This document shows, in pieces, positions 3,385 to 53,145 of a stretch of 53,145 nucleotides of DNA. The stretch's first letter is position 1. The number at the start of each line of letters is the position of its first letter. This stretch comes from Shigella phage 2019SD1. The position numbers and the translations under genes are program-made. The stretch is taken from sequence record MT360681. One strand, given 5' to 3'. The notes beneath the pieces are model-generated. The model did no database searches. It saw only the letters and a program-made list of their open reading frames with translations, and was not told where the DNA came from.

Positions 3385-4069
3385 TTAAGCCGATGGCGGC
3401 AAGCGGCAAGGCTTACGGTGTTGCAATTCGATCCCACTTCCAGACGACTTCGGCTGACGGTCGAATGATTTATGAATCTGGCAGCGGAATCAACGTAATG
3501 ACTGAGGGCGTGTTTGGATGCGTTACGGTCAGGTTTCTGACACTTCAGCTTATAATATTGATGGCGCTTGTGTTCTTGAGAATGCAGCAGGCAACCAGAA
3601 CAAAAACATTTTTGTTGGTGTTGCAGTCCAGCATGGCGGCGTTGATGAAGGCAAAACAAAGATTTTGGCTAAAGACGCTTCCGCGCCAGCGTTCGGCGCT
3701 ACAATCAAACTTTCTGATGATGGTCAGGTTGATACCGCGTCTGGCACTATCGAAACCAACTGGATCGCGACTGGTGATTTCACCGAGTTTCAAGACTTGA
3801 AGCTGGTAGAGGTTCAGGTGCAAAAGTTCCGGCAGTTTCAGCAGGTTAATAAATATGGCGCTCACTTGGCTAAAGACGCTTCCGCGCCAGCGTTCGGCGC
3901 TACAATCAAACTTTCTGATGATGGTCAGGTTGATACCGCGTCTGGCACTATCGAAACCAACTGGATCGCGACTGGTGATTTCACCGAGTTTCAAGACTTG
4001 AAGCTGGTAGAGGTTCAGGTGCAAAAGTTCCGGCAGTTTCAGCAGGTTAATAAATATGGCGCTCACTGA
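3369..4069 (+). CDS. Head-associated protein (hypothetical; possibly decoration protein); frame change near 3515 and tandem ~214-bp duplication at C-terminus
   Basis: Two overlapping ORFs 3369-3800 and 3518-4069 that read as one protein if a 1-bp indel is assumed; 3662-3876 repeated at 3877-4069. Confidence 0.3.
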
Positions 4070-9632: not shown

Positions 9633-12286
9633 CGCTTGGGGTTGATGTATCTCAACTCAACAATGCTGTAAAGTCTTTGCAGCAATTCAAAAAGGCAAAC
9701 GACGACGCAAAGGGAAGCGTTGAGAACTTTGTTGATTCAGAGGTTGTTGCAAGGCAAAGAGCTAAACAATTGGCTGAGGAATTGGCGAAGCAGAAACAGG
9801 AATTTAAAGCAATTCAGTCTGCAATAGATCCAACAGCCAGCAAGATGGATAAGTTGCGTCAGGCTGCGACACAGCTTGATGCACTATGGAAAAAGGAATT
9901 GTGCCGGATGATACATTCTTTGAATCCGGATGATACATTCTTTGAATTAGGTTCAATTCTTGAGACACAGCAAAACAAGCTGATCGCAACGAAAAAGGCG
10001 CTAACAGAAGAAGGCCGAGCGGCGATTGAGGAAGCAAAGAATAAAGCGGGGCAGAGGCTGAGGCCAGAAAGTTCATTGCGGCATTACAGGCACAAGCAGA
10101 CGCAGCGGAAAAACAAAATCAGAGCTTGTAGAAATGAGAGCCGCACAACTTGGAGTAGAGCCGCACAACTTGGAGTTAGTGCTGAGGCAGCGCCATTTAT
10201 TGCAAAAATGAAGGAGCAGGAAAAACAAGCCTCAAAACTTGGCGTTTCTATGGGGCAGTACAAGCAAGCAATGGCGCAATTACCAATGCAGATCACTGAC
10301 GTTGTTACTTCTCTTGCTTCAGGAATGCCAGTATGGATGGTCGCAATCCAGCAGGGTGGACAGATCAAGGACTCATTCGGTGGTGTTGCGAATACGTTCA
10401 AAGCACTAATGACATTTGTCACGCCGTTAAGTGTAGGAATGACGGCGCTGACTGGTGCTCTTGGTTATGCTGCATATAATGCATACAAAACAAATGCACA
10501 ACTGAAGGAGATCACAAAACCGTTCAGGGGTAACTGGTCTTTCTGGTCAGAACAATACGCAGGCTTGACGCTTGGGGTTGATGTATCTCAACTCAACAAT
10601 GCTGTAAAGTCTTTGCAGCAATTCAAAAAGGCAAACGACGACGCAAAGGGAAGCGTTGAGAACTTTGTTGATTCAGAGGTTGTTGCAAGGCAAAGAGCTA
10701 AACAATTGGCTGAGGAATTGGCGAAGCAGAAACAGGAATTTAAAGCAATTCAGTCTGCAATAGATCCAACAGCCAGCAAGATGGATAAGTTGCGTCAGGC
10801 TGCGACACAGCTTGATGCACTATGGAAAAAGGAATTGTGCCGGATGATACATTCTTTGAATCTGCAATTTGCGAAGAACACCTATGAGGATATAGGAAAG
10901 ATCGTAAAAGATGCGAATAAGGATATGGCGGAACGAGCAGCACGCATCGACAGAGAAAACCTTTCCTTAAACAGAGTTCGAGCGGCGCAAGAGGCTTTAA
11001 ACAAAGCCATAGAGGATCAGAAGAACGTAGCAAGGACAGCAGACGAAGAGTTGAAAAACGAGCGGCTGAGAACGTTGAGTTCAGGCGAAAAGAGCTTGAA
11101 GAGGCGAAGAAGGCGCAGCAGCAAAGGAGAAAGTTGGCGGAGTTGTAAAAGCACCAACAGAGCAGCTGCAAAAGAAAAGGCCGAGATAGGCGATCAGATT
11201 GTTTTGCAACAGAGAAAGAACAAGCAATACCGGACGGGCTTAAATTCATTCAGCAAACTTCAGATGCCATTGATGCTAAACTTGCGACAGTCTGGAGCTA
11301 CAGATATGCAAATCAAGCGAGAGCTTGAGTTGAAGAAGTTGCGAACTGATTATGTTGCTGGCGGGGTAGTATCGACGATGAAATTTATCAGCAGATGGAA
11401 GCAAAGCGATATGTACGGCAACGTGCAAGATATTGCAAGCGAGGCGCTCAACGGTCTAACCAACCAAATGGCTACATTCCTTGCAACAGGCAAGGCGAAC
11501 TTTAAGAGCTTCGCAACGTCAATCATCCAAATGATTATCCAGATGATCACGAAGATGGTTATCTTTAATGCCATATCTGGTGCGATTGGCGGTGACACTT
11601 GGACGATTGGAAGCCTTCTTAAAATGTTGGATTTGCAACTGGTGGATACACTGGCGACGGCGGGAAGTATGAGCCAGCAGGTGTTGTCCATAAAGGCGAG
11701 TTTGTCAACGAAGGAGGCCACGAAGCGGATCGGAGTTGGAAATCTTTACAAAATGATGCGCGGTTATGCAAATGGCGGCGTTGTTGGTGGCACTTCATAC
11801 ACTGGCGGCGGAATTTCATCAGGAGCAACAAACCTTAATATTGGTGGGATTAGCGTTGATATTAACAACGGAAACGATCCAAAAGGGTTGGAGACTGGCG
11901 TAAAAATGATTTTCACTGATATGATTAAGCGTTCCTGTACGCAGGGTGGGGAAGTTTACGAATTTGTTATGTCTAAGCGGGGTGATAGTGAAACTACGAA
12001 GGAGGCCACGAAGCGGATCGGAGTTGGAAATCTTTACAAAATGATGCGCGGTTATGCAAATGGCGGCGTTGTTGGTGGCACTTCATACACTGGCGGCGGA
12101 ATTTCATCAGGAGCAACAAACCTTAATATTGGTGGGATTAGCGTTGATATTAACAACGGAAACGATCCAAAAGGGTTGGAGACTGGCGTAAAAATGATTT
12201 TCACTGATATGATTAAGCGTTCCTGTACGCAGGGTGGGGAAGTTTACGAATTTGTTATGTCTAAGCGGGGTGATAGTGAAACTTGA
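9608..12286 (+). CDS. Tail tape measure protein; contains displaced duplicate (9612-9925 = 10548-10862), tandem 288-bp C-terminal duplication (11708-11995, 11996-12283) and short tandem repeats near 9900 and 10140
   Basis: 892-aa ORF with hydrophobic segment ..[21 protein letters not shown].. typical of tape measure proteins; position after chaperone genes. Confidence 0.7.
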
Positions 12287-15150: not shown

Positions 15151-18100
15151 GTGGCTGAAAATATGATAACGGGCAGTAAGGGTGGATCATCAAAACCTTA
15201 TGTTCCGAAAGAGATGGAAGATAACCTGATCTCAATCAACAAAATCAAAATCCTTCTTGCCGTTTCCGATGGCGAGTGCGATCCAAATTTTACACTTCGC
15301 GATCTGTATCTTGATGATGTTCCGGTAATTGCAGACGACGGAACTGTTAACTACCGTGGTGTGAAAGCTGAATTTCGACACGGAACACAAACGCAAGATT
15401 ACATCCGGGGTTTACTGACACATCAAGCGAAGACGCTGGCGCGTGACATTACGACGACAAATCCTTATGTAATTTCTGTAACCAACAAAACATTATCGGC
15501 TATCAGAATAAAAATTCTAATGCCAACAGGCATTAAGCAAGAGGATAACGGCGATCTTGTAGGTGTTAAGGTCACTTATGCTGTTGATATGGCTGTTGAC
15601 GGAGACTCTTACAAAGAAGTATTGATAGACACCATCGAAGGTAAAACGCGTTCCGGTTACGACAGAAGTCGAAGGATTGACCTTCCGGCATTTAATGATC
15701 GCGTATTGCTTAGGGTTAGAAGGGTTACGGCAGACAGCACATCATCTCGCGTTACTGATCTGATTAAGCTACAAAGTTACGCTGAGGTTATTGATGCAAA
15801 ATTCCGTTACCCTCTGACTGGTCTTGTATACGTTGAATTTGACAGTGAGTTGTTCCTAACCAGATCCACGCTGGCGCGTGACATTACGACGACAAATCCT
15901 TATGTAATTTCTGTAACCAACAAAACATTATCGGCTATCAGAATAAAAATTCTAATGCCAACAGGCATTAAGCAAGAGGATAACGGCGATCTTGTAGGTG
16001 TTAAGGTCACTTATGCTGTTGATATGGCTGTTGACGGAGACTCTTACAAAGAAGTATTGATAGACACCATCGAAGGTAAAACGCGTTCCGGTTACGACAG
16101 AAGTCGAAGGATTGACCTTCCGGCATTTAATGATCGCGTATTGCTTAGGGTTAGAAGGGTTACGGCAGACAGCACATCATCTCGCGTTACTGATCTGATT
16201 AAGCTACAAAGTTACGCTGAGGTTATTGATGCAAAATTCCGTTACCCTCTGACTGGTCTTGTATACGTTGAATTTGACAGTGAGTTGTTCCTAACCAGAT
16301 CCCGAGAGTATCACGGTTCATGGGATGGTACTTTCAAGAAAGCGTGGTCGAACAATCCGGCGTGGGTTCTTTATGACATTATCACAAACCAGCGATACGG
16401 ATTAGATCAGCGAGAACTTGGCGTGCAGGTTGACAAATGGAGTCTTTACGAAGCGGCGCAATACTGCGATCAGAAAGTGCCTGACGGAAAAGGCGGCACA
16501 GAGCCGCGTTATCTATGCGACGTTGTTATTCAAAGCCAGATTGAGGCTTATCAGCTTATTCGTGATATTTGCTCAATCTTCCGAGGCATGAGCTTTTGGA
16601 ATGGGGAGAGCCTGTCAATCGTCATTGATAAGCCGCGCGATCCGTCGTACATCTTCACCAATGACAACGTTGTTGATGGCGATTTTCAGTACACAACAGC
16701 AAGCGAAAAGAGCATGTACACGCAGTGCAACGTGACGTTCGACGACGAACAAAACATGTATCAACAGGACGTGGAGGGCGTATTCGACACTGAGGCAGCA
16801 TTGCGCTTTGGATACAATCCAACAAGCATAACAGCTATCGGATGTACACGCAGGAGTGAGGCTAATCGGCGCGGTAGATGGATACTAAAACCAACTTGCG
16901 CAGCACTACGGGATACTAAAACCAACTTGCGCAGCACTACGGTAAACTTTGCTACTGGACTGGAAGGCATGATCCCATCAATAGGTGATGTTATCGCGGT
17001 GTCAGATAACTTTTACAGCAGCAACCTGAAATTAAACCTTTCAGGGCGCGTGATGGAAGTTTCCGGCTTGCAGGTGTTCGTCCCGTTTAAGATTGACGCG
17101 CGACCGGTGATTTCATTATCATCAACAAGCCTGACGGAAAGCCAGTTAAGCGCACAATCTCAAAGGGTTGTGTCGTGGGATAAAGTACCTTACGCATCGC
17201 TGTATGAAATGCAATGGCGAAAAGGTGATGGCAACTGGCTGAATACACCACAGACCGCAAACAAAGAAATTGAGGTTGAAGGTATTTATTCAGGCAACTA
17301 CCGGCCAAACACTTCATTGTCGGATGCGGTTAAGTTAACTGGCGCGCCGGGCTCCCCACCTTACCAGTCAGCGAAGCTGTCACAATTCTTGACCGGGCGA
17401 TGTAGAACCGGAAGCGGAAACAGATCTCACCCTTACCGGCCAAACACTTCATTGTCGGATGCGGTTAAGTTAACTGGCGCGCCGGGCTCCCCACCTTACC
17501 AGTCAGCGAAGCTGTCACAATTCTTGACCGGGCGATGTAGAACCGGAAGCGGAAACAGATCTCACCCTTACCGGTTTGGCATTCGTGTTAAGTGGGGTAT
17601 GCCAGAAGGGAGCGGAGACACGGCATACATTGAGCTTCACCAGTCGCCAGATGGAACAGCGGAAAACTCAAGCCTGTTAACGCTGATACCATACCCACAA
17701 TATGAATATTGGCACGGTACGCTTCCGGCTGGTCATGTTGTATGGTATCGAATCAGAAGCGTGGACAGGATCGGCAATGTTTCCGGTTGGACGGATTTTG
17801 TTCGCGGCATGGCTTCAGATGATGTTGAGGCTGTTTTAGGCAATATTCTTGATAAGATTTTTGATACAGAAGCAGGAAAGGATCTGAAAGAGAATGCCAT
17901 TGATAGCGCAAACAAAATCAAGGATCAGGCGCAAAGCATCATTCAAAACGCATTGGCGAATGATGCAGACGTTAGGATCATGAGGAAGGAAAACGGAAAA
18001 CGCAAAGCCGAGTTTAGGCAATCAATCCAATTGATCGCAAGTGAAACTGAGGCGCGCGTTACCGCAATGACGCAACTCAAGGCTGAATTTGACGAGGAAA

Positions 18101-22409: not shown

Positions 22410-22934
22410 ATGCATATCATTACTGGTGAGATCCGAAAAGAGCCGCGAGTAAAGCAAATGCCTAACGGCAGCACACTTTATGTGGTTGAACTTTCAGAGC
22501 GATACAAAGATAAAGATGGAAACTGGCAATATACAAACTACAGTTTCTTTTTAATGCGAAAACAGAAGGTCTTAAGGGTTGGTATGATGAGGCGTTCCGG
22601 TTGGCAAGGTTATTTCTGTATCTTGCATATCATTACTGGTGAGATCCGAAAAGAGCCGCGAGTAAAGCAAATGCCTAACGGCAGCACACTTTATGTGGTT
22701 GAACTTTCAGAGCGATACAAAGATAAAGATGGAAACTGGCAATATACAAACTACAGTTTCTTTTTAATGCGAAAACAGAAGGTCTTAAGGGTTGGTATGA
22801 TGAGGCGTTCCGGTTGGCAAGGTTATTTCTGTATCTTGTGACACTCTGCGCATTGAAACGCGAGAACACAACGGAAAGATGTATGACAAAGCAATCAACC
22901 TCCTATGGACTTTGACGACGATATTCCTTTCTGA
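22410..22934 (+). CDS. ssb: Single-stranded DNA-binding protein; exact tandem 213-bp duplication of N-terminal OB-fold segment and frame disruption before the C-terminal tail
   Basis: CAGGAGAATGAATA plus ATG; N-terminal ..TGEIRKEPRVKQMPNGSTLYVVELSERYKDKDGNWQYT.. OB-fold-like; a downstream frame ends ..MDFDDDIPF-stop, the hallmark SSB acidic tail. Confidence 0.55.
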
Positions 22935-23843: not shown

Positions 23844-24003
23844 TGAATTGCAAAATCAACCGTGTCGAGCAATTGGTAAACTTCAAGTTGCCTACTCCTC
23901 AGACTCCGCCTACTGGCTGTTGCGCAACAGCCAGTAGGCGGAGTCTGAGGAGTAGGCAACTTGAAGTTTACCAATTGCTCGACACGGTTGATTTTGCAAT
24001 TCA
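23844..24003. repeat. Perfect 160-bp palindrome (two 80-bp inverted arms, centre at 23923/23924)
   Basis: Right arm is exact reverse complement of left arm. Confidence 0.85.
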
Positions 24004-24870: not shown

Positions 24871-25104
24871 CGACGGTGGGTTTTGACGAGCAATCTCTAT
24901 GCTAGACAGATCTGAAAGGTTCGCATCTTTTCTTAGTAGATTTTCAGCATTAAGGCTTTTAGCAAATTCCTCAGCCTCATTTCGCGCCGTAACAGCGCCG
25001 TTTTTGCAGTTTCAGCGGCGTTATTTGCAGATTGAGCGCCAGTCAGACAAACGGCGTGGTCTGGTACGTATTATACAGAGTATGTTCCTTTTACGCTGAA
25101 ATCT

Positions 25105-25156
25105 GACGCTTGTCCGGTTCTGTAAATTGCGCAATTTACAGAACCGGACAAGCGTC
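25105..25156. repeat. Perfect 52-bp palindrome
   Basis: GACGCTTGTCCGGTTCTGTAAATTGC / GCAATTTACAGAACCGGACAAGCGTC. Confidence 0.8.
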
Positions 25157-25337
25157 AAAACAACGACGCAGGATGGTCGCCAATCGTTTGTGGAGGTAGT
25201 CAGTCGCAATGGGGTTATGCTCTAAAATCAGCTTTCGGAACTATTGCTAATAACCAAGCTTGGCCTGATACAGCTATACACCACTCATTCGCCCCGGTGC
25301 AACAATCTTTTTCATTGATGCACCGTTTCAAGCGGCT

Positions 25338-31900: not shown

Positions 31901-32653
31901 ATGGCGCAATCCTTCGCGCCTGTTTTAACAAAAGTGCTATTTCATCATGTATTCTACAGCGATCATGAATTGCTTATATCCGTATGTTACGGCAGCGAAT
32001 CCGCCAAGCTCACGCACGCGGCGCAAGAAGGCTTTAGTAAAGAAACTGAAGTGACATTTGAACAAATAGAACGAGAAACATTCATTGGCAATGCTCTTGC
32101 TACTGGAGGCCATTACCGTGCCGTTAAACCAAATCAATATTATAAAGTCACTGGCAACCGCTATAACGGCAGCAACACGCCTGACATTGTGCGCGATTTG
32201 TGGTCCACGCCGTCAGAGGTTGTCGAATGGATGGAAAGCGAATACGGTGATTATGACATCGACGCGGCGGCAAGCAAAGAAAACGCTGTATGTGAAAAAT
32301 TCTACAGCAAGGAAACAAATTGCTTAAAGCGTTGGTGGGGTAGTAATAAGCATATCTGGCTGAATCCACCGTACAGCAATATAACGCCTTTCGTTAAGAA
32401 AGCGATTGAGCAAATGGAGCACAATAACCAGATCGACATTCTGTTGCCTTGCGACACATCGACAGGATGGTTTTATGAGGCACAACAGAAAGCAGCGGAA
32501 ATCATCTGGATCACTGGCGAAGTTTACCGGAGGACGGAACAGAATATTCCCGCACAGGACGCCTTGCTTTCACTTCAGCGCTTACAGGTAAACCAGTGCA
32601 GGAAACAACAAAGGAAGCGTTATTTTCATCATGCGCGAACTGAAAGAAGGTGA
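31901..32653 (+). CDS. dam: DNA N6-adenine methyltransferase (phage Dam family); C-terminus probably frame-disrupted
   Basis: ..WSTPSEV..DIDAAAS..HIWLNPPYS.. motifs (NPPY catalytic motif) as in phage Dam-type methyltransferases. Confidence 0.6.
   Translation: MAQSFAPVLTKVLFHHVFYSDHELLISVCYGSESAKLTHAAQEGFSKETEVTFEQIERETFIGNALATGGHYRAVKPNQYYKVTGNRYNGSNTPDIVRDLWSTPSEVVEWMESEYGDYDIDAAASKENAVCEKFYSKETNCLKRWWGSNKHIWLNPPYSNITPFVKKAIEQMEHNNQIDILLPCDTSTGWFYEAQQKAAEIIWITGEVYRRTEQNIPAQDALLSLQRLQVNQCRKQQRKRYFHHARTERR
31921..31942 (-). promoter_or_regulatory. Conserved promoter-like motif copy, leftward orientation, inside start of Dam ORF
   Basis: TGTTTTAACAAAAGTGCTATTT. Confidence 0.3.
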
Positions 32654-33806: not shown

Positions 33807-34997
33807 ATGAGATGGACAATCACCACTCGCGACAAAGAACAGCTAGAAGCATTAATGCAGGCCGCTATGGATGCATTTAGCGAAGAAGTTCCGCGACTTG
33901 ATCCGCAACCGGAATCACAAAAGGATTATAGCGAGACGTTATCACTGTATCCGATCTTTGATATGCACCGGGCGCAATGGCGCATAAGCATGAATGCGGC
34001 GAGAACTGGGATACAGCAACAGCAGAGCGCGAATAATTTCATTGATTATTCCATCCAGTGCGCGCCGGATAGCGAAAAGGCTGTTTTGCTGATTGGTGGT
34101 GACATGCTGCATAGTGACGGCACGGAAGCGGTGACACCTGCAAGCGGTCACGTATTGGATCAAGATAGTCGATACGCAAAACTTGTTTATGTTGCCATCC
34201 GGTCAGTGCGTCGAGCAATAGCAAAGCTGTTATCAAAACATAAAACGAGATGGACAATCACCACTCGCGACAAAGAACAGCTAGAAGCATTAATGCAGGC
34301 CGCTATGGATGCATTTAGCGAAGAAGTTCCGCGACTTGATCCGCAACCGGAATCACAAAAGGATTATAGCGAGACGTTATCACTGTATCCGATCTTTGAT
34401 ATGCACCGGGCGCAATGGCGCATAAGCATGAATGCGGCGAGAACTGGGATACAGCAACAGCAGAGCGCGAATAATTTCATTGATTATTCCATCCAGTGCG
34501 CGCCGGATAGCGAAAAGGCTGTTTTGCTGATTGGTGGTGACATGCTGCATAGTGACGGCACGGAAGCGGTGACACCTGCAAGCGGTCACGTATTGGATCA
34601 AGATAGTCGATACGCAAAACTTGTTTATGTTGCCATCCGGTCAGTGCGTCGAGCAATAGCAAAGCTGTTATCAAAACATAAAACGATCTGGTTGCGCGCA
34701 GCAATGGCGGCAGCATATGAGAATGAGCCGCGAGTGCATGTTGATGTTTCTCCGCGAGTAGTTCATCACACGCAATATGGCAAAACATTCCCGCATACCA
34801 TCATCTGGTTGCGCGCAGCAATGGCGGCAGCATATGAGAATGAGCCGCGAGTGCATGTTGATGTTTCTCCGCGAGTAGTTCATCACACGCAATATGGCAA
34901 AACATTCCCGCATACCATCATGGGCACACTATCCGCAAACCTGAAACATTGGCGGCAAAGATGCATACGCTGCGCGCGAGTACATAGCACTATATAA
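33807..34997 (+). CDS. Hypothetical protein; exact tandem 438-bp duplication (33810-34247, 34248-34685) and 117-bp tandem duplication (34686-34802, 34803-34919)
   Basis: 396-aa ORF composed largely of repeated units. Confidence 0.3.
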   Translation: MRWTITTRDKEQLEALMQAAMDAFSEEVPRLDPQPESQKDYSETLSLYPIFDMHRAQWRISMNAARTGIQQQQSANNFIDYSIQCAPDSEKAVLLIGGDMLHSDGTEAVTPASGHVLDQDSRYAKLVYVAIRSVRRAIAKLLSKHKTRWTITTRDKEQLEALMQAAMDAFSEEVPRLDPQPESQKDYSETLSLYPIFDMHRAQWRISMNAARTGIQQQQSANNFIDYSIQCAPDSEKAVLLIGGDMLHSDGTEAVTPASGHVLDQDSRYAKLVYVAIRSVRRAIAKLLSKHKTIWLRAAMAAAYENEPRVHVDVSPRVVHHTQYGKTFPHTIIWLRAAMAAAYENEPRVHVDVSPRVVHHTQYGKTFPHTIMGTLSANLKHWRQRCIRCARVHSTI

Positions 34998-36026: not shown

Positions 36027-36040
36027 CGCCTCCTTTGTTA
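36015..36040. terminator. Bidirectional rho-independent terminator between endolysin region and convergent minus-strand gene
   Basis: GGAGGC-TTAAC-GCCTCC followed by TTTGTTA. Confidence 0.55.
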
Positions 36041-36280
36041 TTCAATTCTCTTTACAGTAACCAACAAAACGCCGTCATCATCACACAAATTATGCTCTGA
36101 TATGTTAAACGCTCGCATGTCAGAATGAATGAGCGTTAACATTGCGTGCATGAAGTCTTCATGTGAGATTTGAGAAGTAGCGCAAAACTTAAGAATTTCA
36201 TCTATCAGTTTACTTTCCATGATTTTCATGATAACCAAGTTTAGCCTCTGCTTGTTCTCTTGCCATAATTGCATCATCAA
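36038..36280 (-). CDS. Hypothetical protein (80 aa)
   Basis: Minus-strand ORF ending at the bidirectional terminator. Confidence 0.4.
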   Translation of the reverse strand: MMMQLWQENKQRLNLVIMKIMESKLIDEILKFCATSQISHEDFMHAMLTLIHSDMRAFNISEHNLCDDDGVLLVTVKRIE

Positions 36281-36324
36281 TGCTTGAAAATAATCCTAAA
36301 TGAACACTCTTACCTTTATCATAT

Positions 36325-36978
36325 ATGGTTGCATGCCATTTTTTCTTTCTTCCTCCAGCACACCCCTATTCCATTGTCATATATAAATATTTTATTCCAA
36401 TCGATTGGAATAAAATATTTATATATGACAATGGAATATTGTGGGAAATGCACAATGGAAAAATACCAGAAGGAATGGAGATAGATCATATATGGCACAA
36501 TAGGTGGGATAACAGGATTGAAAATTTAAGGCTTGCATCAAGATTAGAGAACAGCAAAAACGTATCTCTACTAAAAAGAAATAAATCTGGTAGGGTTGGG
36601 GTGTGCTGGAGGAAGAAAGAAAGGTGGAGAAACAGAAGGGGAAAAGCAAAGCACGGAAGCGTTGCTGGATGTGTAGATAAAAATGGCTATGTAAGAATAA
36701 GGTATAATGGTGTATTGCTTTTGGCACATAGGATAATATGGGAAATGCACAATGGAAAAATACCAGAAGGAATGGAGATAGATCATATATGGCACAATAG
36801 GTGGGATAACAGGATTGAAAATTTAAGGCTTGCATCAAGATTAGAGAACAGCAAAAACGTATCTCTACTAAAAAGAAATAAATCTGGTAGGGTTGGGGTG
36901 TGCTGGAGGAAGAAAGAAAAAATGGCATGCAACCATATACATATCTTTTCCTTAGAGCTTTTATTTGTTGTCTATTAA
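36325..36978 (+). CDS. HNH homing endonuclease with AP2-like DNA-binding domain; internal ~180-297-bp duplication (36442-36620 approx = 36739-36917)
   Basis: ..NGYVRIRYNGVLLLAHRIIWEMHNGKIPEGMEIDHIWHNRWDNRIENLRLASRLENSKN.. classic HNH motif; ..KSGRVGVCWRKK.. AP2-like. Confidence 0.65.
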   Translation: MVACHFFFLPPAHPYSIVIYKYFIPIDWNKIFIYDNGILWEMHNGKIPEGMEIDHIWHNRWDNRIENLRLASRLENSKNVSLLKRNKSGRVGVCWRKKERWRNRRGKAKHGSVAGCVDKNGYVRIRYNGVLLLAHRIIWEMHNGKIPEGMEIDHIWHNRWDNRIENLRLASRLENSKNVSLLKRNKSGRVGVCWRKKEKMACNHIHIFSLELLFVVY

Positions 36979-36996
36979 CATTTGACGTAAACAGTT

Positions 36997-37500
36997 CTTC
37001 ATCGCTCATTTCTCCGATCCGTAAAACATCCCTAACCCATTCGTTTTGCATACCTTCCGGGCTGTAAAGTTCAAACGAGAAAGGTCGATTTGCGGATCCT
37101 TTCTTACACCAGAACTTTCCATCAACTCCATCTGCTGCATTCAGGAACTGAACTGAGCGAGCAATGTTGCGCGCCAACTTTCCAACAACATCAACATCAT
37201 TGCCAAGAGAAATTACAGGGTAGCGATCATTTCCGTTATTAACATCATTAACCTCACCCCAAAAGCTGGACGATTGACGGTATCCGTTTGCCTGAATGGA
37301 CACGCGCACCGGAGACAATCCTTGTGCATCAGCTAATTCGATAATTTGTTTTGGTGTTAGTTTGTTGGTTTCAAACGAAAAATTCGAGTTGATGGAAAGT
37401 TCTGGTGTAAGAAAGGATCCGCAAATCGACCTTTCTCGTTTGAACTTTACAGCCCGGAAGGTATGCAAAACGAATGGGTTAGGGATGTTTTACGGATCGG
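36997..37500. repeat. Fold-back structure: ~95-bp perfect inverted repeats (36997-37090 and 37405-37500) flanking a ~315-bp segment that codes on the minus strand
   Basis: 37405-37500 is the exact reverse complement of 36997-37090; best reading frame of the enclosed segment is on the minus strand whereas the continuing gene is on the plus strand. Confidence 0.8.
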
Positions 37501-38747
37501 AGAAACTTGGACGCTTCACGGTTGAGTATCACGGAACGGATCAGCCGACCGCTCTTTATGTTGTCACAAGCCAGCCTCCTTCAACTGGTAAATCTGCCGT
37601 TAACAGCCCGGCACTTGCTCCAATGGTTGCAGAAGTAGAAAGAATTAACGATCAGCGAAAGAAGGAAAGAAAAAGATTCAGGCAAAGTTGGCAGGTCTTG
37701 CAAAAGAGACTTGGACGCTTCACGGTTGAGTATCACGGAACGGATCAGCCGACCGCTCTTTATGTTGTCACAAGCCAGCCTCCTTCAACTGGTAAATCTG
37801 CCGTTAACAGCCCGGCACTTGCTCCAATGGTTGCAGAAGTAGAAAGAATTAACGATCAGCGAAAGAAGGAAAGAAAAAGATTCAGGCAAAGTTGGCAGGT
37901 CTTGCAAAAGAGAAGCAAAACATACATTAGCGCCGCCAACGCTTCTGGCTATGCTGGTGATGATGCTGAAATGGGTAAACTAATCGAGATCATCACTCGA
38001 CACGGCAAGGCTAATAAGGGGATCTTGAATGTGCGCGCCATATATGAGGCTGCACGAAAAGTTAAGCCGTTTGTTGGTCAGGCTGGCGTAATGAAGCGTA
38101 TGGAAACGCAACTGCTGCCGATGCTTGAAGAAAGAAATTATATTTGTGTGATTAATGGCGTTGTTTTTGTAAATCCAACATTGCTGGGGAGTGAATCAAA
38201 CATCCAGCTTAAGATCAGCAAATCAGCAATGCGAGTTCTTAACATGGCTCGTCAGGAGATGGAACCGCACCTTGCTGATGGAGGAAAGTATTCGCATACA
38301 ATGCTGCGCGGCGCGCTTGGCAAAATGGATAAGCAGGTGATCAGGATTGCTTCAGTTTTGCACACTATCCGCAACTGGTTTAATCGGCGGATACCCTCAA
38401 AAGTCGAAAGAGATCTGAAAGCATGGGATCACGGTCATGTTTCTATAGCTCGTGCAAACGCTGACAACAATATGAGTTTTAAAGCTCTTGGCTGTATGGC
38501 GGTAATTGCCCGTGATGAAACAATCAATGCCATCATGGATGCAGGATCGCGCGGTATCGGTGTGAGTGAGCGTTATTTGCTTGTGCGTGAGGAATCATTT
38601 TGTGACATCGTTTTCCCTGTGTCCGACACCACGCCGGAAGGACTTGCAAGAATCAACAATCGCCGGGGTAACTTTGCTGTGATTTCAGACGAGGCAACGA
38701 GTATTAACAGCCTTATTGATGATAACTCCTTTTTGATGCGGCAATAA
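37500..38747 (+). CDS. Putative replication protein with P-loop-like motif (primase/helicase-type, tentative); tandem 204-bp duplication (37506-37709, 37710-37913); native N-terminus probably lies in the inverted segment upstream
   Basis: ..VVTSQPPSTGKSAV.. Walker A-like; long ORF in replication region. Confidence 0.3.
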   Translation, partial: EKLGRFTVEYHGTDQPTALYVVTSQPPSTGKSAVNSPALAPMVAEVERINDQRKKERKRFRQSWQVLQKRLGRFTVEYHGTDQPTALYVVTSQPPSTGKSAVNSPALAPMVAEVERINDQRKKERKRFRQSWQVLQKRSKTYISAANASGYAGDDAEMGKLIEIITRHGKANKGILNVRAIYEAARKVKPFVGQAGVMKRMETQLLPMLEERNYICVINGVVFVNPTLLGSESNIQLKISKSAMRVLNMARQEMEPHLADGGKYSHTMLRGALGKMDKQVIRIASVLHTIRNWFNRRIPSKVERDLKAWDHGHVSIARANADNNMSFKALGCMAVIARDETINAIMDAGSRGIGVSERYLLVREESFCDIVFPVSDTTPEGLARINNRRGNFAVISDEATSINSLIDDNSFLMRQ

Positions 38748-38769
38748 TACCGCACCAATGCTACCCGCA

Positions 38770-38788
38770 TTTAACAAAAATGCTATTT
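38770..38788 (-). promoter_or_regulatory. Conserved promoter-like motif copy (variant), leftward orientation
   Basis: Minus-strand reading AAATAGCATTTTTGTTAAA followed by stem-loop TGCGG-TATTATT-CCGCA. Confidence 0.4.
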
Positions 38789-39128
38789 GATCCGCTCTAT
38801 GCTAACTAAGATTTTTCTGGTTCCCTTGCGCTATGGCAATGCGCGGTTACGGAATCAGCAAAATCAAAATAAAGTGATTTGTGGTAAGAAAGACCAATCA
38901 GCCACCCAACCATCGTTTTCTTTATTGGCCTGACTATATCGCCGTGATTGAAGGTTTTGTTGCCGAATGAGTCACCTTATAGCGATATTCTGGTAACGCT
39001 TTCCTTCTTTGAAATGCTTTTTGCACGGGATCTTGTGATCTACAAAGGTGCATTTAATTGTTTTGTTTTGATATGACGATAGTCAGACTCAACAGCGTTT
39101 TGCCACTTACTACCCTTTGTAATGTTCT

Positions 39129-43631: not shown

Positions 43632-44774
43632 TTGTGGTGCTTAAGCGTGGATAACATCAAGTATCCGATCACGTTCCACACGGTTGGTAACTCAACTATT
43701 CGATTCACATCTCGCGACAATGGCGTTTATAGCGACGGTCAGAAATCAGAGTTGAAAGTTGATTTCTTTGTCAATGGTCACAACAAATTCAATCCGCACA
43801 ACGAAAAAGATAAGGTGTACTACGTGGAAGATATTACAAAACACTTGTTTGGCGAAACTCCATTCGGCGGCGGGAAGACGTCAATTCAACAAATCATTGA
43901 CGATCAGATCCGCAAGGCAGCCGTTGAAATGAAAGCGCCCGGAGGCTGGCGTATTGATAAGGGCGCCTTTACCATTCAAGAAATCGTAACGCAGGGCGCG
44001 ATTGAAGACATGCCGCTTGGCGCTTCAATCATCGGCATCAAAGACGACAACGGCGACTGGCAGGATGTTTCATTCCTGTTAAGCAGATCGAAGTACACGA
44101 CGACCTGTTTTGCCTCCCGGCGCATCATGGCAGCTACAAGGGCAAAGCCTTTGCCGCAGAGCTTGACATCAAGCGCGGAACGATTGTTAAGTGGAAGGCA
44201 AAAGTGTAAAGATAACATCAAGTATCCGATCACGTTCCACACGGTTGGTAACTCAACTATTCGATTCACATCTCGCGACAATGGCGTTTATAGCGACGGT
44301 CAGAAATCAGAGTTGAAAGTTGATTTCTTTGTCAATGGTCACAACAAATTCAATCCGCACAACGAAAAAGATAAGGTGTACTACGTGGAAGATATTACAA
44401 AACACTTGTTTGGCGAAACTCCATTCGGCGGCGGGAAGACGTCAATTCAACAAATCATTGACGATCAGATCCGCAAGGCAGCCGTTGAAATGAAAGCGCC
44501 CGGAGGCTGGCGTATTGATAAGGGCGCCTTTACCATTCAAGAAATCGTAACGCAGGGCGCGATTGAAGACATGCCGCTTGGCGCTTCAATCATCGGCATC
44601 AAAGACGACAACGGCGACTGGCAGGATGTTTCATTCCTGTTAAGCAGATCGAAGTACACGACGACCTGTTTTGCCTCCCGGCGCATCATGGCAGCTACAA
44701 GGGCAAAGCCTTTGCCGCAGAGCTTGACATCAAGCGCGGAACGATTGTTAAGTGGAAGGCAAAAGTGTAAATAG
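43632..44774 (+). CDS. Hypothetical early protein; exact tandem ~561-bp duplication (43650-44210, 44211-44771); C-terminus frame-disrupted
   Basis: 380-aa ORF consisting of two identical 187-aa units. Confidence 0.35.
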   Translation: MWCLSVDNIKYPITFHTVGNSTIRFTSRDNGVYSDGQKSELKVDFFVNGHNKFNPHNEKDKVYYVEDITKHLFGETPFGGGKTSIQQIIDDQIRKAAVEMKAPGGWRIDKGAFTIQEIVTQGAIEDMPLGASIIGIKDDNGDWQDVSFLLSRSKYTTTCFASRRIMAATRAKPLPQSLTSSAERLLSGRQKCKDNIKYPITFHTVGNSTIRFTSRDNGVYSDGQKSELKVDFFVNGHNKFNPHNEKDKVYYVEDITKHLFGETPFGGGKTSIQQIIDDQIRKAAVEMKAPGGWRIDKGAFTIQEIVTQGAIEDMPLGASIIGIKDDNGDWQDVSFLLSRSKYTTTCFASRRIMAATRAKPLPQSLTSSAERLLSGRQKCK

Positions 44775-51589: not shown

Positions 51590-52982
51590 AATGAGCGAAT
51601 ATTCATTCGAAAAGATGATCCGCATTTGGTTTCAACTTCTCGGGGCAAAGGTTCTTAGGAAACTGGCATTTCAGTTACCTATGCAGCGAAGTGCAGGAGC
51701 TATGGCCGGAAAGCTGGCAAAGGCGAGCGCAAAGGACTTGATTGTAACCGATGTCGGCAAGGTTAAATTGCAAGTTAACTCGCGTTCTATCGGTGGTCAG
51801 GTTACTGGTCTGCGTGGCGGCTACATGGATGATGGATTTACTGGTATGCTGGTTCTTGATGATCCAGACAAGCCGGATGACATGCTTTCTAAGGTGAAGC
51901 GCGAAGCCGGACACATGCGCCTAAAGAACACGGTGCGATCACGTCGAATGAAGGACACAACGCCAATCGTAATGGTCCAGCAACGGCTACACGTCAATGA
52001 TTCAACATGGTTCATGACAAACGGCGGCATGGGCGGCATCCAGTTTAAGGTGGTCAGTATTCCGGCGCTCGTTACTAAGGAATATCGCGAAACGCTTCCT
52101 GATTGGTTAAAGCCTGAGTTTGATCGCGATGTTTTATCCAGTAAGCCAGTAATGATTGATGGTGTTGCTCATTATTCATTCTGGCCTGCTAAGAAAGCGC
52201 GGAGGAATTACTTGCACTTCGAAATGCTGATCCGTACACGTTCGCCAGTCAGTATCAGCAACAGCCTGTTGCGCTTGGCGGTAACGTGTTTAAAACGGAG
52301 TGGTTTCAGTATTACGGCAGCAGCGAGAAATGCACGCTACCAAAACCGGATCGCTTTGAGTATACATTTATCACGGTTGATACCGCGCAGAAAACGGGTG
52401 AGCTTAACGACTACTCCGTATAAAGATCGCGTTTACTTCATTGATGGTGTTCGCGGAAAATGGGAAGCACCAGACCTTGAAACTAATTTTGTTGCGTTCG
52501 TTAATCAGTGCTGGAAGCGTAATAAAGAATGCGGAACGTTGCGAAGGATTCATGTTGAAGATAAGTCATCTGGCACTGGCTTGATTCAGAGCGCAGCGAA
52601 AAAATTATATAAAGATCGCGTTTACTTCATTGATGGTGTTCGCGGAAAATGGGAAGCACCAGACGAAACTAATTTTGTTGCGTTCGTTAATCAGTGCTGG
52701 AAGCGTAATAAAGAATGCGGAACGTTGCGAAGGATTCATGTTGAAGATAAGTCATCTGGCACTGGCTTGATTCAGAGCGCAGCGAAAAATTATGATCAAG
52801 ATCAATCCCGTTCAGCGAGACTGGCTGAGATACTCGCTGAAGTTGCGGCGTTCACATTCGATGATTCGCATCCTCATGATGATATTGTTGATAACATCAT
52901 TGATGCTGTTAACATTGAAATGAACATGGCAGATGATCCGGTAGGAAGAATGAAAAAATTGGCAGGTTTGCGGAACAAATAA
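51590..52982 (+). CDS. Terminase large subunit (N-terminal region uncertain; internal frame change near 52195; 180-bp tandem duplication 52425-52610 approx)
   Basis: ..ADPYTFASQYQQQPVALGGNVFKTEWFQYYG.. and C-terminal ..FTFDDSHPHDDIVDNIIDAVN.. typical of terminase nuclease domain; Walker A-like ..SRGKGS.. only visible in a shifted frame near 51600. Confidence 0.55.
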
Positions 52983-52985
52983 TCA

Positions 52986-53012
52986 AAGGCTGGTAAATCC
53001 AGCCTTTTTATT
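52986..53012 (+). terminator. Rho-independent terminator after large terminase
   Basis: AGGCTGG-TAAAT-CCAGCCT followed by TTTTATT. Confidence 0.6.
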
Positions 53013-53034
53013 GAGGAAAGATATACCAGAGGAA

Positions 53035-53145
53035 ATGGTTTCCCGGCTTTACTGTTGACGGCGTGGCAGATGAGGCGGCATTCCGTTCCTTGTGGGATGA
53101 GAAGCGACTCAATGCAAAATTATTGATGCGCTTTGTTGGTCGCGT
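53035..53145 (+). CDS. Portal protein N-terminal segment (continues at position 179 after wrap)
   Basis: ATG at 53035 after AGGAAAG-like RBS and terminase terminator; downstream sequence identical to 179-255 apart from one A-run length difference; the frame needs a 1-bp correction. Confidence 0.35.

Follow-up and report, generated by a model that had tools for sequence, protein, structure and literature searches.

I-HmuI of Bacillus phage SPO1 is encoded by an intron and carries a helix-turn-helix at its C-terminus, without an AP2 domain. Proteins of the free-standing HNN/HNH-AP2 class are harbored by the Xanthomonas phages Xp10, OP1, and Xop411, by T1, Rtp, and T5, and by the T4-related phages RB16, RB43, and RB49 (PMC2248197, PMC2993671); this class is inserted at multiple sites, and AP2-truncated forms arise in it by decay (PMC2248197; PMC2993671).

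The DNA analyzed in the present work (hereafter, the window) comprises all 53,145 bp of the Shigella phage 2019SD1 record (MT360681), in which the original prediction had placed a recently inserted AP2-HNH homing endonuclease at positions 36325-36978. According to our data, the gene underlying this region is very likely a free-standing HNH(HNN)-AP2 homing endonuclease (predicted) of the Hanrivervirus/Warwickvirus phages (T1-like, Drexlerviridae), whose sequence is garbled in this record. The gene itself is already known, being annotated in GenBank, RefSeq, UniRef, and the supplement of the 2019SD1 paper, and tonnikala and Fulano1 have intact, annotated orthologues. Table S1 of that paper lists it as ORF44 (36448...36978, plus strand, 176 aa, HNH endonuclease) (PMC8590004); the corresponding CDS, SD1_44 (36448..36978, plus strand), codes for the last 176 aa of a 217-aa ORF.

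This ORF, which runs from ATG to stop on the plus strand (36325-36978) and contains the peptide quoted in the original prediction, is a mosaic of codon-phased blocks of the HNH gene. The HNH endonuclease core proposed for the region was recovered by profile search: the ORF matched Pfam HNH_3 (PF13392) with E=1.2e-39 (134.1 bits, cut-off 24.8) in two stretches, the better one at aa 133-176, and phrog_99, "HNH endonuclease", with E=8.7e-67, again in two stretches. The AP2 elements that had been assigned to the same interval were not retrieved, as Pfam AP2 (PF00847) gave no match to the 217-aa ORF at E<=1 and only the first ~14 residues of an AP2-like domain (SGRVGVCWRKKEK) are embedded in it, present twice. 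No second HNH_3 paralogue was found elsewhere in the window. Moreover, exact look-ups of the 217-aa ORF, of 120-aa and 63-aa reconstructions, and of two unrearranged proteins of the window yielded no recorded match.

The ORF is built entirely of pieces that comprise whole codons, and its codons 1-26 are antisense copies of other parts of its own gene. The segment 36322-36366 carries, on the minus strand and in native orientation, codons 106-120 (GVCWRKKEKMACNHI) and abuts the stop codon at 36319-36321 (reverse complement TGA). It forms a 45-nt perfect inverted repeat with 36895-36939, of which it is the left arm (36325-36366, within this repeat, being the reverse complement of 36898-36939), and, when read on the plus strand, it gives the junk N-terminus MVACHFFFLPPAHP. 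A 72-nt perfect palindrome follows (36367-36438), consisting of antisense codons 2-13 (36367-36402) and their sense copy (36403-36438). The native codons 2-14 (DWNKIFIYDNGIL) are found flipped to the plus strand at 36403-36441, and an extra copy of codons 54-113 (WEMHNG...CWRKKE; 180 nt, plus strand), with a partial HNH_3 core, is placed at 36442-36621, exactly between the codons for L14 and R15; these 60 codons are 100% identical to positions 36739-36918. Native codons 15-120, also flipped to the plus strand, occupy 36622-36939 and embed the complete HNH_3 core (36721-36852) and a frameshifted tail, KMACNHI. The end of this last block coincides with the last sense codon. The triplet that comes next, CAT (36940-36942), corresponds to the native ATG in reverse complement and opens the plus-strand tail of the ORF (36940-36978), which is antisense to the 3' end of ydbL. 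The rest of the AP2-like domain (KWHATIYDKGKSVHLGLFSSIDDAIMAREQAEAKLGYHENHGK, 43 residues) lies on the minus strand at 36213-36341, in native orientation and adjoining the copy of codons 106-120; the A-run, with 6 A (36917-36922) against the 8 A of Fulano1, puts it in a different frame from the HNH part.

The Rfam search of the window locus returned only miRNA-precursor matches below threshold, plus a weak match to sraA (E=0.96). The plant-miRNA matches (36354-36451), all far below their gathering scores, were discarded, since they stem from the 72-nt perfect palindrome.

Concerning the neighborhood, the native downstream neighbor is a small, unrearranged phrog_9539 gene on the minus strand (36038-36280, 80 aa, E=3.7e-23; the published ORF43, 36277...36038). 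The native upstream neighbor is the 3' part of ydbL (phrog_2794 family; 36940-37135, minus strand, native orientation), whose last codons overlap the native HNH start. The helicase gene (37139-38990) is scrambled, with blocks flipped singly and one of them duplicated (37505-37913, period 204), and its region also holds a 120-nt inverted copy of ydbL (37386-37505). The ORF thus lies, as had been described, between a minus-strand ORF (the 80-aa one) and a broken replication gene (the helicase); the latter, however, is just one of many scrambled genes, and the argument for a recent insertion drawn from it does not hold.

Megablast and blastn assigned the window to Hanrivervirus (Drexlerviridae, Tempevirinae). 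BEK7, Fulano1, and tonnikala carry one copy of the HNH gene, located after the helicase and ydbL genes on the same strand and before a small gene, all of them converging on the lysis cassette. The natural gene codes for 157 aa in Fulano1 and tonnikala, and in the BEK phages a frameshift shortens its product to 128 aa. The native order was rebuilt from the window by joining the reverse complement of 36940-37135, the segments 36403-36441 and 36622-36894, and the reverse complement of 36030-36366 (845 nt). The rebuilt locus aligned in one piece and with 100% coverage, with an identity of 97.0% to Fulano1 and of 96.7% to the BEK phages. Once the A-run (6 A in 2019SD1, 8 A and in frame in Fulano1, AAAGAAA in BEK7) was corrected, the locus gave a 157-aa protein with 99% identity to one present in ENA assemblies, the latter sharing a 90% protein cluster with those of tonnikala (QHR71284.1) and of the BEK phages (QGH76971.1).

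The reconstructed protein matched HNH_3 with E=8.5e-22 (77 bits) and phrog_99 with E=1.7e-65 over residues 1-157. It possesses the catalytic boxes D-H ... N ... N of the "HNN" subset (DNR, ENLRL, EN), in the form EIDHIWHNRWDNRIENLRLASRLEN, and boxes matching those of the 2019SD1 gene are carried by HNN-AP2 proteins (PMC2248197). The alignment of 55 sequences revealed that D68, H69, N77, I79, L82, R83, and N93 are invariant. A search of the PDB with the single sequence retrieved only noise; the profile of the 55-sequence family matched I-HmuI (1U3E) with E=8.2e-7 over positions 1-110 and AP2 domains over positions 86-150, namely that of WRI1 (7WQ5, E=1.9e-5) and also that of TEM1 (7ET4). The AlphaFold2 model of the intact protein (pLDDT 90.3) found its best PDB folds in I-HmuI and in the AP2 domains of AtERF1, TEM1, and WRI1, the predicted fold superimposing on the AtERF1 domain (1GCC) with an rmsd of 1.3 A over 48 columns. 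As for Pfam AP2, the reconstructed 157-aa protein scored 21.6 bits (E=2.7e-4) against a gathering cut-off of 33.3 bits, and 26 of the 55 homologues matched the profile (E<=1e-3). On the basis of the profiles and the model, the C-terminal domain of the intact protein is taken as a divergent AP2 domain. The family originally assigned, an HNH protein (HNN-type, HNH_3) with a C-terminal AP2-like domain, was the right one for the underlying gene.

To evaluate the mobility of the gene, the reconstructed locus was used as a megablast query, and 68 phage records matched. The site was occupied in 10 records, where the whole 845-nt locus aligned, and at least 46 records matched with the flanks only; the empty sites span 324-333 bp and the occupied ones ~842 bp, with an indel of ~512 bp. 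The presence of the gene in 10 records and its absence from at least 46, in loci ~512 bp shorter, bears out the mobile insertion that had been proposed and fits a free-standing homing endonuclease. Hosting of the gene in a group I or II intron or in an intein was rejected, as no Rfam model matched at gathering score and the flanking genes are separate, complete ORFs; in the natural locus (Fulano1 and vojen), Rfam returned just one weak, unrelated L20-leader match (E=0.49). At the level of sequence comparison, therefore, the natural gene behaves as a free-standing mobile element.

The structure of the empty allele was analyzed in vojen, where an 87-aa ydbL, ending in NRQNIEVLRRKFNLT, overlaps by 53 nt and in a different frame an unannotated 57-aa ORF (MLIDKILKFCAVSSISHEDF...), a homologue of phrog_9539. 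In the occupied allele the HNH-AP2 gene parts ydbL from the phrog_9539 gene, and there are two diverged copies of the overlapped stretch. The left copy retains the ydbL reading (NRQQIKALRKRY...) and shares 14 of 35 positions with the empty allele, versus 157 of 165 just upstream. The comparison shows that the natural gene lies precisely at the point of overlap of the two genes in phages without it; it may insert there by doubling the overlapped ~45 nt, so that both neighbors stay intact. By analogy with its family, the encoded protein would use its N-terminal, I-HmuI-like His-Me finger to cleave the ydbL/phrog_9539 junction in a co-infecting relative where that junction is unoccupied, and its C-terminal AP2 domain to recognize the sequence; the gene would pass into the relative as the break is repaired off the occupied genome. 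The recoded patch of ~35 nt at the 3' end of ydbL would shield the carrier from its own nuclease. The diverged patch, the doubled overlap, and the layout of the empty allele suggest, in turn, that the putative target is the ydbL/phrog_9539 junction of relatives lacking the gene and that the recoded patch protects the carriers.

These data allow the arrangement found in the window to be evaluated. In principle, the 217-aa plus-strand ORF might be an intact and recent AP2-HNH insertion with a genuine internal duplication, lying on the opposite strand as a mobile cassette; its frame is open, with two HNH_3 matches, and the site is polymorphic in the relatives. We consider this highly improbable, since the first 26 codons are antisense to the gene itself, no AP2 domain is matched in the ORF, the remainder of that domain being on the opposite strand, and the relatives all carry a single copy of the gene, in the orientation of ydbL. 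The strand switch does not hold as an argument for insertion: the plus orientation is an artefact of the record, and in all the natural relatives the gene is co-oriented with ydbL and helicase. The internal duplication is real (180 nt) but is not a trait of the gene, as it is one among ~27 codon-phased duplications of the window. Furthermore, the record is flagged as UNVERIFIED_ASMBLY.

The rearrangements are indeed spread over the whole genome. The comparison with phage herni gave 105 alignment blocks; the gene order is retained, but inside the genes (portal, capsid, tape-measure, tail-fibre, tail-tip, primase, helicase, and terminase) the sequence is shuffled, duplicated, or inverted. The window harbors 27 exact direct repeats of at least 100 nt, with a spacing divisible by 3 in 26 cases and a length that in all 27 equals 3n plus 0-2 nt of chance extension, and perfect palindromes of 160, 54, and 72 nt. 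Seven out of the eight tandem duplications with unambiguous boundaries begin at codon phase 0, and for 10 out of 18 tandem duplications the end coincides with the last sense codon of the surrounding ORF. Several events start at codon 2, as in the case of 22410-22841, where M is followed by 71 aa, an identical second run of 71 aa, and the stop. Inverted blocks fall mostly (19 out of 22) in genes natively on the minus strand, two of them (17304-17572 and 31901-32035) sitting in natively plus-strand regions; the blocks of helicase and primase are flipped singly, retaining the ascending genomic order. A 19-nt motif is also altered, being TTTTAACAAAAGTGCTATT in 8/8 window copies versus TTTAACAAAAAGTGCTATT in 9/10 copies of herni.

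Natural breakpoints and assembler errors respect neither codon phase nor CDS ends. A codon-phased and CDS-bounded pattern points to a computational step that followed gene or protein alignment, and we are strongly inclined to regard the rearrangements as computational, the HNH locus being one case of a genome-wide scrambling of this type; this reading is based on the pattern and on the NCBI flag. A post-assembly step may have stitched together blocks of protein alignments, pasted in sense orientation. In the record, the gene interior, from codon 2 to the last sense codon, is flipped to the plus strand, with the AP2 half still on the minus strand, a 60-codon block is doubled, and two antisense copies are set in front. 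The 72-nt palindrome and the extra codons 54-113 are not accounted for if alignment blocks were simply stitched together, and the two inverted blocks of natively plus-strand regions also count against this reading. A different source of the duplications, the concatenation of overlapping, frame-shifted ORF calls, was rejected, as it would yield periods not divisible by 3. Given this computational scrambling, the 217-aa ORF does not match a real protein.

The opposite possibility is that the rearrangements are physical, i.e., that break-induced or template-switch repair generated them in a defective or hyper-recombinant sub-population, which was then faithfully assembled. The inverted-duplication junctions and the perfect palindromes do resemble the products of fold-back repair, and Nanopore reads are able to capture molecules of this kind. 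We regard such an origin as extremely improbable in the light of the multiples of 3 found for 26 of the 27 spacings, of the phase-0 starts (7/8), and of the ends at the last sense codon (10/18). Moreover, portal, terminase, capsid, tail, primase, and helicase are all scrambled, and yet 2019SD1 was propagated and plaque-assayed (PMC8590004); with so many genes disrupted, the phage could not have been propagated as reported. The related idea that the DNA of the 2019SD1 stock was a massively rearranged population of genomes, of which only frame-preserving ones survived, has in our opinion an almost negligible probability.

The provenance of the record was also considered. The phage was sequenced with Nanopore R9.4, Albacore 2.3.1, and Canu 1.8, with reads averaging 1.9 kb and Illumina not being mentioned, and a scaffold of 73.6 kb was cut down to the 53.15-kb genome (PMC8590004). 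The identities reported for the neighbors of ORF44 are oddly low (62.7% for the helicase, Table S1, and 68% for the endolysin) (PMC8590004). The NCBI protein name of the HNH gene carries the label "UNVERIFIED_ASMBLY", the deposited 176-aa protein retrieved by the protein homologue search being [quoted passage not shown] (QJT70573.1 = YP_009901434.1). The junction 36939/36940 is present in the IMG/VR contig IMGVR_UViG_2974632794_000001 (53,145 nt). The sharing of the arrangement by this contig, the deposited protein, and Table S1 indicates that the rearrangement is a property of the deposited record. An unscrambled parent was sought in IMG/VR with two native-junction patterns and one HNH-core pattern, which retrieved either nothing or the contig of 2019SD1 itself.

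A distinct question concerns the A-run that separates the HNH and AP2 parts. The real gene of 2019SD1 might be a decaying pseudogene, with a true frameshift at this run that severs the AP2 domain, and code for no active endonuclease. In the window the tract reads 6 A in either copy, the proteins of BEK7, BEK1-23, BEK12B, and BEC3 end at the same tract (128 aa) through a different change, and HNN-AP2 genes are described as decaying once inserted (PMC2248197). This scenario is possible but, in our view, rather unlikely, because the record is an unpolished R9.4 Nanopore assembly with systematic miscalls (the motif TTTTAACAAAAG in 8/8 copies versus TTTAACAAAAAG in 9/10 of herni) and because near-identical, intact 157-aa versions are common. 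The systematic homopolymer errors of the record suggest that the 6-A run is probably a Nanopore miscall of 8 A. Programmed frameshifting at the run was set aside on account of the same errors and of the different shift that would be needed by the 6 A of 2019SD1 and by the AAAGAAA of BEK7.

As a consequence for users of the record, 2019SD1 proteins such as the 176-aa "HNH endonuclease", the 451-aa "helicase", and the endolysin are chimeras. The scrambled record is carried also by IMG/VR and UniRef, and chimeric proteins can contaminate databases and comparative analyses. Any odd repeat, palindrome, strand switch, or domain duplication of the window should be assumed to be an artefact until it is checked against the reads. 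The biological weight of the gene is small, since free-standing HNH-AP2 endonucleases are common in T1-like and other phages.

Compared with the known systems, the HNH genes of tonnikala (QHR71284.1) and Fulano1 (gp49, UGV22650.1) are the same gene in the same locus, ydbL > HNH > phrog_9539; they are intact and single-copy, on the native strand and with an 8-A run, whereas the version of the window is flipped, duplicated in part, and split at the AP2 domain. The "homing endonuclease" of BEK7, BEK1-23, BEK12B, and BEC3 (QGH76971.1, 128 aa) occupies the same locus with 96.7% nucleotide identity and is likewise cut at the A-rich HNH/AP2 tract, which reads AAAGAAA there and 6 A in 2019SD1; these records are not rearranged.

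Among solved structures, the best match is I-HmuI (PDB 1U3E, Bacillus phage SPO1), which aligns with residues 1-110 with a fold probability of 1.00. The two proteins have in common an N-terminal beta-hairpin DNA-binding region and a His-Me finger, predicted here for the intact phage protein, at an identity of 17%; unlike I-HmuI, the natural gene is free-standing. The members of the HNN/HNH-AP2 class and the 2019SD1 gene share the same architecture, DH ... DNR ... ENLRL ... EN followed by AP2 (PMC2248197), although those members belong to other phage lineages and occupy other insertion sites. Lastly, the three-strand-plus-helix fold of the plant AP2/ERF domains (1GCC, TEM1 7ET4, and WRI1 7WQ5) is found in the C-terminal 50 residues of the model, with an rmsd of 1.2-1.6 A for 1GCC and most TEM1 chains and of up to 3.7 A (<=3.7 A) for one TEM1 chain and WRI1; in the phage protein, the AP2 domain is fused to a nuclease, whereas in plants it is part of a transcription factor.

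About 27 exact duplications, each of 100-561 nt, were found over the whole window, and the alignment of the window with phage herni is broken into 105 blocks; examples of duplicated or rearranged stretches lie at positions 3665-4067, 11708-12283, 15433-16302, 22411-22838, 33809-34686, and 43650-44771. Most of the large genes have their intragenic blocks shuffled or inverted, while the order of the genes is kept. The spacing is a multiple of three in 26 out of the 27 exact duplications, seven out of the eight unambiguous ones start in codon phase 0, and 10 out of 18 tandem duplications end at the last sense codon. This pattern fits a computational step aware of coding sequences or of protein alignments, rather than mutation or ordinary misassembly.

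Like the HNH ORF with its 72-nt palindrome, the stretch that corresponds by homology to genes 2-3 of herni (a hypothetical gene and the tail-tip gene) contains perfect palindromes of this type, one of 160 nt (23844-24003) and one of 54 nt (25104-25157). Several plant miRNA-precursor families were matched by Rfam (in 'evalue' mode) at positions 36354-36451 because of the 72-nt perfect palindrome located there; these matches were consequently rejected as spurious (MIR5185, for instance, scored 45.8 bits, its gathering score being 101.7).

The two ends of the record (1-256 and 52279-53145) are joined by short exact matches (1-21 with 52279-52299, 175-229 with 53065-53119, and 227-256 with 53116-53145), and portal and terminase sequences are present at both of them. 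These data suggest that trimming of the 73.6-kb scaffold, itself scrambled, left ends that overlap or are circularly permuted.

A 19-nt motif, TTTTAACAAAAGTGCTATT, occurs in eight copies on both strands of the window (31923, 32970, 39294, 39979, 41470, 42138, 43225, and 48524), the chance expectation being 0. Phage herni harbors 10 copies (7088, 8108, 11356, 14201, 16251, 16757, 17633, 19039, 21781, and 24429), nine with TTTAACAAAAAGTGCTATT and one (21781) with TTTTGCAAAAAGTGCTATT, mostly at the ends of genes and overlapping stop codons. In Hanriverviruses, this sequence probably serves as a natural regulatory motif between genes; the T3-to-T4 and A5-to-A4 difference between herni and the window is consistent, and appears to be a homopolymer miscall made systematically in Nanopore sequencing.

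About 20 unannotated MG0656xx records (e.g., A15a, A16a, and A143), for which Campylobacter jejuni is given as the host, contain T1-like Hanrivervirus genomes sharing 90-95% identity with the coliphage/Shigella phage group of 2019SD1; their Campylobacter host label looks doubtful.

Between its HNH and AP2 halves, the gene has an A-rich tract of variable sequence (36917-36922 and 36339-36344; about 3345 in both L003 and L002, sequences of relatives): it comprises eight A in Fulano1, whose gene is intact (157 aa), and six A in the window (120 aa), and reads AAAGAAA in the BEK phages (128 aa). This variation marks a hot spot of decay or, as far as the 2019SD1 record is concerned, a sequencing error.

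Lastly, phage vojen, which lacks the HNH-AP2 gene, harbors at positions 552-725 an unannotated ORF of 57 aa (MLIDKILKFCAVSS...VKRIE), homologous to the phrog_9539 gene. The ORF lies in a different frame from ydbL and overlaps its final 53 nt; this overlap is the exact site of the HNH-AP2 gene in the occupied genomes.
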